Position numbers and translations under genes: made by a program. The notes under the pieces were generated by a model that saw only the letters and a list, made by a program, of their open reading frames with translations, did not search any database and was not told the DNA's origin. This document shows positions 25,477 to 25,992 of a stretch of 64,000 nt of DNA, piece after piece. Source of the stretch: Shigella phage Moonfish; sequence record PQ613263, one strand, 5' to 3'. Positions within the stretch are counted from its first letter, which is position 1; each line of letters begins with the position of its first letter.

Positions 25477-25992
25477 CTACATGATTATCCAGTCTTCGGC
25501 TAATATATCTGATTGTGAGGGAACCCAGGGCATAAACTCATTATCAACCGTTTTAATTCCCAACCAATGTCGTTTCCTGCAAGTGGAATTCTCATGTTTA
25601 TCCATGGACCAATATTTACTTGATACCAAGGTGATATACATTCCTTTTCCATTCCAGGCTTTACGGCTCATTCTAGAGCCAGTCTTCACAAGTTCAATTG
25701 CGCAACCAAAGGTGCAGCCTTTATCCACATTAAAGTAAGTGGACTCAAATACAGGTGCCGGTGACCAGCTAATATAGCCACGGAATTGGGGATGGTTGGG
25801 CAGGGAATCTGTATACTCGACTAAGTAACCATTCTCTGATGGGTCTTCATCTGCTGGTACATCCCAGCCACGAAGTTTGCAGTATGTTCCCTTATTCATC
25901 GGGAAACCATTTACATGCTTGGTTCCAATATAGTTAGAGAACTGAACTTTAATTTCTTCTGTCATATCTACCTCAAACGAGAAAGCCCTCAC
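25477..25992 (-). CDS. DUF2829-domain protein (Thoeris anti-defence Tad2-like C-terminal domain) with an N-terminal extension
   Basis: C-terminal 75 aa contain RKAWNGKGMYITL and a terminal SQSDILAEDWIIM, matching the DUF2829 signature as I recall it. Confidence 0.45.
   Translation of the reverse strand: MRAFSFEVDMTEEIKVQFSNYIGTKHVNGFPMNKGTYCKLRGWDVPADEDPSENGYLVEYTDSLPNHPQFRGYISWSPAPVFESTYFNVDKGCTFGCAIELVKTGSRMSRKAWNGKGMYITLVSSKYWSMDKHENSTCRKRHWLGIKTVDNEFMPWVPSQSDILAEDWIIM

Follow-up and report, generated by a model that had tools for sequence, protein, structure and literature searches.

Tad2 proteins are homotetramers, arranged as a dimer of V-shaped dimers with helix alpha1 in the tetramer interface. 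For the Tad2 of phage SPO1, the main ligand contacts were reported to be W25, N26, W73 and D79, with I63, T65 and T78 near the adenine and water coordinated by N26, D67, H71, W73, S76 and D79. According to a preprint of June 2026, the region between the genes for the virion RNA polymerase (vRNAP) and the primase of N4-like phages is an anti-signalling hotspot, from which Tad2, Tad3, Acb4, Sequestin, the RuvC-like Bes1, and Bes2 are reported. Here we analysed a stretch of 64,000 nucleotides from Shigella phage Moonfish (sequence record PQ613263; "the window" in the following) and describe one of its minus-strand genes, found as open reading frame (ORF) 25477..25992. Inside the N4-like hotspot, this gene contributes the Tad2 to a cassette of three sponges. 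Judged by sequence, it is the orthologue of gp49 of phage N4. Its product joins a C-terminal Tad2-like domain to an N-terminal domain for which we coined the name YISWSP, after the domain's most conserved motif. The gene and its parts are:

25477..25965, minus strand: coding sequence (including the stop codon) of the two-domain protein, 162 amino acids (aa), N4 gp49 orthologue; from the ORF list, with ATG and GAGG; 76.6% identity to ABK54417.1
25971..25974, minus strand: Shine-Dalgarno-like GAGG, 5 nucleotides (nt) upstream of the ATG at 25965, read directly from the sequence
25726..25944, minus strand: YISWSP domain, aa 8-80, beta-rich, without an earlier name; motifs YIGTK..PM, LRGW.VP.DE, GYLVEY and GYISWSP..FE..Y
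25480..25716, minus strand: Tad2-like (DUF2829, PF11195) domain, aa 84-162; candidate pocket W104, N105, I137, T139, D141, W147, S150, S152 and D153

The ORF had been picked out in a preliminary description made from the letters alone. Both the ORF and the motifs quoted there, RKAWNGKGMYITL and the C-terminal end SQSDILAEDWIIM, were confirmed in the sequence and in the ORF list. Translation probably begins at the ATG at 25965 and not at the listed GTG at 25992, because the GAGG precedes this ATG and the resulting 162 aa fit the close full-length homologues (160-166 aa) and N4 gp49 (160 aa). The N-terminal extension that had been described is real, but with this start about 84 aa precede the Tad2 domain instead of the 95 aa claimed. 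The protein matches phrog_872 over its full length (E 7e-61), and the identity to N4 gp49 extends over 98% of its length. Orthologues already carry the RefSeq label "DUF2829 domain-containing protein"; a functional study of N4 gp49 was not found in the searchable literature. A naming trap is to be kept in mind: Pfam calls PF13876 "N4 Gp49/Sf6 gene 66", whereas the GenBank record of N4 (EF056009, 3127..3980) has the PF13876 counterpart as gp48 and the YISWSP plus Tad2 protein as gp49, so that family names may mislead annotation. The alternative GTG start is overlapped by a GC-rich hairpin (CCCTC-ACTAG-GAGGG, 25986..26000), which lies within the 118-nt spacer between this gene and the adjacent Acb4-family gene.

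The C-terminal half had been assigned to DUF2829 from its signature motifs, and a hidden Markov model (HMM) search bears this out. Pfam PF11195 (Tad2-like, formerly DUF2829) matches aa 85-161 over model positions 2-72 of 73 with an E value of 5.5e-22 and 78.5 bits, far above the cut-off of 25. A phmmer search against the PDB sequences returned ModTad2 (9eib, E 7e-16), SPO1 Tad2 (8sme, E 1e-12), HgmTad2/AcrIIA7 (8kbi) and SptTad2. The AlphaFold2 model, built from 47 homologues (predicted local distance difference test score, pLDDT, 91.7; predicted template modelling score, pTM, 0.78), shows in this half a helix at residues 86-94, strands at 99-101, 110-114, 134-138, 144-146 and 159-161, and further helices at 123-126 and 151-155, which agrees with the build of Tad2 proteins: a helix at the N-terminus, then an antiparallel sheet whose loops contain short helices. 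With Foldseek, the predicted fold superposes on the solved Tad2 structures, in keeping with the preliminary description: the target template modelling (TM) score is 0.79-0.84 for SPO1 Tad2 and ModTad2 (E about 2e-6, 38-43% identity) and about 0.6 for HgmTad2.

The phmmer alignment also places the ligand pocket. Eight of the ten contact and water residues of SPO1 Tad2 (W25, N26, I63, T65, D67, W73, S76 and D79) are identical in the Moonfish protein (W104, N105, I137, T139, D141, W147, S150 and D153); T78 is conservatively replaced by S152, and H71 differs, its place being taken by M145. Across the 47 homologues, W104, N105, G106, T139, W147, Q151 and D153 are invariant. In HgmTad2, mutation of W21/N22 and of S90/T92/D93 weakens binding of glycocyclic ADP-ribose (gcADPR), and, judged by eye, the WNG and W..S.SD motifs of the Moonfish protein seem to cover these positions. 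The beta2-beta5 loop, from strand 110-114 to strand 134-138, comprises about 20 residues and is shorter than that of SPO1 Tad2, a protein which does not bind cyclic dinucleotides. An insertion of 35-41 residues as in HgmTad2 is absent here from both the family alignment and the AlphaFold2 model; because of this short loop the protein probably lacks a cyclic-dinucleotide site of the HgmTad2 type. With the canonical pocket intact and this insertion absent, we see no indication of the altered specificity that had been proposed. The more general idea of a nucleotide-signal sponge gained support from the family HMM, the fold, the conserved gcADPR contacts and the location between two known sponge families.

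The analysis shows the family membership, the predicted fold, the conserved pocket residues, the genomic context and the domain associations; beyond these, as to oligomerization, ligand identity and inhibition of defence, we infer a two-module anti-signalling protein whose Tad2 half likely sequesters an ADP-ribose-derived signal made by TIR enzymes, most probably 3' cyclic ADP-ribose (3'cADPR). The protein would be made from the minus-strand block together with the Acb4-family and Sequestin-family sponges. Its C-terminal module would assemble into a Tad2 homotetramer with pockets at the protomer interfaces, and these would capture the TIR-made signal, most probably the 1''-3' gcADPR (that is, 3'cADPR) of type I Thoeris, with His-ADPR or N7-cADPR as alternative ligands. 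Upon capture of the signal, the Thoeris effector would not be switched on. The YISWSP module, by homology with the N-terminal domain of RyR Tad (see below), would probably dimerize through a swap of its first beta-strand.

Related proteins of proven activity are consistent with this proposal. Type I Thoeris is inhibited by the closest tested Tad2 proteins (36-39% identity), one of which acts against types II and IV as well. Three active single-domain proteins, Tad2_70, Tad2_68 and Tad2_82, show 53-67% identity with the C-terminal domains of two-domain relatives of the Moonfish protein. Proven sponges are thus near relatives of the Tad2 domains in the two-domain family, and gain or loss of the extra domain has occurred several times.

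Several points weigh against Tad2-mediated sequestration. The water-coordinating H71 of SPO1 Tad2 is replaced by Met. All Tad2 proteins with demonstrated activity that we found are single-domain proteins, and the only tested one with an N-terminal extension, a different one, is inactive (Tad2_73); no tested Tad2 with a YISWSP domain is contained in the supplementary table of Hadary et al. The YISWSP domain is joined to helix alpha1 through only about 6 residues, so that tetramer assembly could be changed or blocked. No binding or infection experiment with the Moonfish protein or N4 gp49 was found in the searchable literature. In addition, several Tad2 homologues had no inhibitory effect on any of the seven defence systems against which they were tested. 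This last result also favours the idea that the protein is no immune antagonist at all, its Tad2-like fold binding an ordinary host nucleotide or metabolite or having decayed, and the gene serving host takeover or having no strong function; likewise, HgmTad2 binds the housekeeping messenger c-di-GMP with picomolar affinity. We regard this as improbable, since the pocket residues do not vary within the family, the protein has no long insertion of the kind that cyclic-dinucleotide binding requires, and members of two other sponge families lie on either side of the gene, in a hotspot for which anti-signalling genes were demonstrated experimentally.

The Pfam family is also that of AcrIIA7 (HgmTad2), the DUF2829 protein originally reported as a Cas9 inhibitor, and neighbouring genes in related phage records are labelled "anti-CRISPR protein", a label that some records attach to the PF13876 (Acb4) family. 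An anti-CRISPR function like that of AcrIIA7 nevertheless deserves hardly any credence, as the activity of AcrIIA7/HgmTad2 against Cas9 was not reproducible in vitro or in vivo. Where we checked such labels (phages 24-32N and Huey), they had been given to PF13876 (Acb4) and Tad2-domain genes and had the look of automated annotation. Type II-A CRISPR-Cas is not normally found in E. coli, which counts against this function as well.

The N-terminal part, treated in the preliminary description as an uncharacterised extension, turned out to be nothing idiosyncratic but a large, conserved and mobile domain family. Predicted alone, aa 8-80 form a compact domain of four strands and two helices (pLDDT 91). 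Searches gave no Pfam family at E values up to 10, no NCBIfam family and nothing meaningful in a sequence-profile search of the PDB. When 1.84 billion cluster representatives were searched with its profile, on the other hand, 2,721 proteins matched at E <=1e-3, with 1,313 of them at E <=1e-10. The fusion is likewise not special to Moonfish, the same architecture being present in N4 gp49 and in more than 300 protein clusters. Carriers of the domain occur in phages of Escherichia, Vibrio, Pseudomonas and Clostridium.

Three other identities for this domain were considered and rejected. It is no diverged duplicate of the Tad2 domain, as hhalign between the N- and C-terminal halves returned a probability of 0.75%. 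The look-alike motifs that prompted this comparison, noted by eye, were RGW versus R.GW and WSP..F..Y versus W.PS..D..DW. By their descriptions, two known families were set apart: Lockin is an elongated beta protein with a cog-like hexameric assembly and does not occur in model phages, whereas YISWSP is present in N4; Acb5 is concentrated in phages of Streptomyces and Mycobacterium and has different key residues, whereas YISWSP is found mostly in phages of Gram-negative hosts.

The partners of the domain were counted from Pfam matches among the 148 best-scoring of the roughly 2,700 representatives. Tad2 (43) and Sequestin (41) were by far the most frequent, followed by Acb4 (12) and the Acb2/Tad1 hairpin domain (5). 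Up to 101 of the 148 proteins thus carry a sponge domain; the number of distinct carriers is somewhat lower, because a few proteins hold two sponge domains. Other Pfam partners (WDGH, AP2, HNH) account for three matches in two proteins. The same domain combinations are seen in PHROG families. Examples of the arrangements are:

YISWSP-Tad2: the Moonfish protein; phages Huey and Skulduggery
Tad2-YISWSP: P0167
Acb4-YISWSP: P0209
Acb4-YISWSP-Sequestin: P0214
YISWSP-Acb4-Sequestin, 232 aa: Achromobacter phage Axy13, 1870..2568
YISWSP-Acb4, directly after a separate 68-aa Tad2 gene: Clostridium phage CP51, 1295..1965

Stand-alone YISWSP proteins of 75-95 aa exist as well; in a T7-like contig (L005, 5001..5558) the gene for such a protein lies 3 nt ahead of an Acb4 gene. 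A protein that seemed to hold the domain in tandem (P0138) was discarded, as its two matching stretches are not two full copies and its first 70 residues are unrelated. Irrespective of the partner, Y28, W34, G46, Y51, N57, Y64, W67 and P69 are invariant, and the mean pairwise identity of the domain (62%) is close to that of the Tad2 pocket core (64%).

These associations led us to count YISWSP among the mobile modules with which phages counter immune signalling; it may serve either as a dimerizing scaffold or as a second anti-signalling module. The first of these roles is suggested by RyR Tad, gp68 of Pectobacterium phage vB_PatP_CB1, to whose N-terminal domain YISWSP is homologous according to profile comparison: hhalign aligned the two over 63 columns with a probability of 96.2% and an E value of 2.2e-9. 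In addition, Foldseek matched YISWSP to a protein with a RyR domain from Yersinia phage TG1 (E 4e-5), and the 183-aa profile phrog_18865 gave a weak match to the Moonfish protein (E 0.017) and a better one to a stand-alone member, P0122 (E 1.9e-4). In the crystal, the N-terminal domain of gp68 forms a strand-swapped dimer via beta1, and this domain alone (gp68_N) does not inhibit type I Thoeris, for which the C-terminal domain alone is sufficient (bioRxiv 10.64898/2026.06.04.730250). The scaffold role rests on this crystal dimer together with the inactivity of gp68_N. The monomer model of the Moonfish protein has a beta1-beta2 hairpin at residues 10-22, matching that of gp68.

The second role would turn the protein into a double sponge, in which YISWSP itself binds another immune signal, adding to sequestration by the Tad2 half and not excluding it. 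Candidates for this signal are a cyclic oligonucleotide of CBASS or type III CRISPR, a cyclic mononucleotide of Pycsar, or another Thoeris signal, and two pathways would be blocked at once, as by Acb4-Tad2 and Acb4-Sequestin fusions. The domain indeed shuffles like a sponge module: it occurs stand-alone, before and after Tad2, after Acb4, between Acb4 and Sequestin, and fused to Acb2/Tad1 hairpin domains, and a stand-alone copy precedes an Acb4 gene by just 3 nt. Sequestin itself was found via the same kind of fusion pattern. Counting RyR Tad, the partners belong to five structurally unrelated sponge families with different oligomeric states, and the residues that stay invariant whatever the partner are polar or aromatic (together with G46 and P69); the domain as a whole is about as conserved as the Tad2 pocket core. 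On the other hand, gp68_N, the sole member of the family tested so far, was inactive against type I Thoeris, the C-terminal domain of gp68 being enough, and the YISWSP domain is acidic overall. The negative result with gp68_N may not carry over to canonical copies, because the seven near-invariant residues R32, W34, P37, E40, E50, D53 and N57 are missing there. Taken together, we consider a double sponge a tenable possibility, with the balance of evidence tilted somewhat against it. With the same reserve, the domain at aa 8-80, as in N4 gp49, could be the founding example of an overlooked anti-signalling family directed at a signal other than 3'cADPR, which was probably missed by fusion-based searches for want of a Pfam model.

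Alternatively, YISWSP could bind a host immune protein in the manner of Tad3-Tad8, for example an effector or a TIR enzyme, so that signal sequestration would be combined with direct blockade. Direct binders of ThsB and ThsA exist, and Tad3 is among the proteins reported from N4-like hotspots. We find this unlikely, since the same residues are invariant across phages of hosts as different as Escherichia, Vibrio, Pseudomonas and Clostridium, a pattern more readily expected for a small ligand common to all of them than for a host protein that evolves fast.

For sequestration by the Tad2 half, the preferred reading, the neighbourhood of the gene provides the context. The following features surround it:

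14632..25002, plus strand: vRNAP gene, convergent with the minus-strand block
25010..25033, minus strand: strong terminator-like hairpin with a 10-bp stem (6 GC pairs) and a T run, from a consensus scan; ends the minus-strand unit
25038..25274, minus strand: Sequestin-family sponge gene, 78 aa; PF21825 ("crAss001_48"), E 1.6e-17, 63.6 bits versus a cut-off of 24.8
25249..25467, minus strand: 72-aa gene; phrog_9565 (function not known), E 1e-33
26084..26476, minus strand: Acb4-family sponge gene, 130 aa; PF13876, E 6.7e-26; counterpart of N4 gp48 (Acb4)
about 26640..27790: stretch poor in ORFs, with one tRNA
28201..28677, minus strand: acidic, low-complexity protein of 158 aa
28679..29233, minus strand: RuvC-like protein; phrog_159; position of N4 gp46
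29233..30030, minus strand: SSB
30072..30824, minus strand: Sak4-like annealing protein
30881..33091, minus strand: DNA primase

The plus-strand ORF encodes 3,456 aa and is the vRNAP of an N4-like podovirus; the closest DNA records are those of Escherichia phages, three named Gamaleyavirus among them, with 82-94% DNA identity. The minus-strand block contains the replication and recombination genes and corresponds to the middle-gene block at whose end the gene had been placed. This placement holds, as the gene is the third-to-last of the block that converges on the vRNAP gene. Between the vRNAP and primase genes, Moonfish carries SSB, Sak4-like, RuvC-like, Acb4 and Sequestin genes, in agreement with the hotspot of N4-like phages, whose definition names SSB, a RecA-like protein, a RuvC-like protein (Bes1) and known signalling inhibitors, and members of three sponge families (Acb4, Tad2 and Sequestin) lie within 1.5 kb. 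The founding member of Acb4, the PF13876 family, is a cyclic-dinucleotide sponge; the Acb4 of N4 is gp48, which was experimentally shown to be an Acb4 and a trigger of Panoptes. Characterized members of the Sequestin family (PF21825) sequester 3'cADPR. In the Sequestin-family protein of Moonfish the R...E, Q, R pocket pattern is retained, judged by eye, and the real start of its gene may be an internal ATG at 25241.

The 72-aa protein showed only weak, sub-threshold Pfam matches of a helix-turn-helix-like kind, and we list its gene as a candidate for a further anti-defence or regulatory gene. The hairpin at 25010..25033, between the end of the vRNAP gene and the Sequestin gene, is probably a bidirectional terminator. 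In Pseudomonas phage Ab09, Bes1 and Bes2, which help to evade CBASS and Thoeris, are encoded at positions matching the RuvC-like and 158-aa genes. The ORF-poor stretch comprises about 1.1 kb without a convincing ORF and holds a tRNA-Ile with the unusual anticodon AAT at 26817..26895, the sole match when 24900-28300 was scanned against Rfam; the corresponding stretch of N4 and of phage 24-32N is a gap without annotation.

As for the significance of these findings, the Tad2 half as such is ordinary, and a Tad2 gene in the N4-like hotspot was already reported, at figure level, in the June 2026 preprint. With Acb4, Tad2 and Sequestin, Moonfish has three different signal sponges side by side, which fits the hotspot. 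In the searchable literature we found neither the systematic association of YISWSP with nearly all sponge families nor an identification of N4 gp49 as YISWSP plus Tad2. The association with Tad2, Sequestin, Acb4, Acb2/Tad1 and RyR Tad is a useful new lead, of the sort that led to Sequestin. If YISWSP has an activity of its own, a new family of phage counter-defence proteins and a function for N4 gp49 would emerge; if it is a second inhibitor, the protein would be bifunctional and the stand-alone versions of 75 aa would be new anti-defence genes. If it is only a dimerizing clamp, it would show how unrelated sponges are stabilized or joined.

Among the known systems, phage N4 is the nearest for comparison. 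Its gp49 gene lies at the same place as in Moonfish, between gp48 (Acb4) and the vRNAP gene, with gp48 directly upstream. The two N4 genes abut without a spacer, compared with 118 nt in Moonfish, and neither a Sequestin gene nor a 72-aa gene is annotated downstream of gp49, unlike in Moonfish. In N4, knock-down of Acb4 (gp48) alone relieved restriction by Panoptes, which suggests that gp49 does not bind 2'3'-c-di-AMP to any major extent, although a polar effect of the knock-down is possible for abutting genes.

Among characterized Tad2 proteins, those of SPO1 and Myroides odoratus superpose best on the Moonfish domain. SPO1 Tad2 (Gp34.65; PDB 8SME/8SMF/8SMG) belongs to the same Pfam family; 79-86 columns align at about 40% identity, and the TM of the predicted fold is about 0.8. 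However, it is a single domain of 89 aa, whereas the Tad2 domain of Moonfish is preceded by the YISWSP domain of 75-80 aa; its beta2-beta5 loop is a few residues longer, and it has H71 and T78 where Moonfish has Met and Ser. ModTad2 (also MoTad2; PDB 8V3E, 9EIB), from a prophage of Myroides odoratus, is the best sequence match in the PDB (43% identity at the E value given above) and has the same fold; it binds His-ADPR of type II Thoeris and, in a second pocket, cUMP/cCMP. HgmTad2/AcrIIA7 and SptTad2 (PDB 8KBI-8KBM, 8WJD) are of the same family and have the gcADPR-binding WNG and W..S.SD motifs in common with Moonfish, but they bind cyclic dinucleotides via the 35-41-residue beta2-beta5 insertion, where Moonfish has about 20 residues.

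With respect to the two-module plan, RyR Tad is built in the same way and comes from the same N4-like hotspot, a YISWSP-type N-terminal domain being followed by a gcADPR-binding domain. Its C-terminal sponge, however, has the all-helical ryanodine-receptor-repeat fold and not that of Tad2, and its N-terminal domain is a divergent copy that lacks the seven consensus residues named above. Multi-sponge fusions are known in Acb4-Tad2 of Pasteurella phage Pm86, in Tad2-Sequestin, and in Acb4-Sequestin of Ab09 gp59; Sequestin was discovered through such a pattern. As in the Moonfish protein, one polypeptide joins anti-signalling modules in these fusions, but there both modules are proven or recognized sponges, whereas in Moonfish this is true of the Tad2 module alone.

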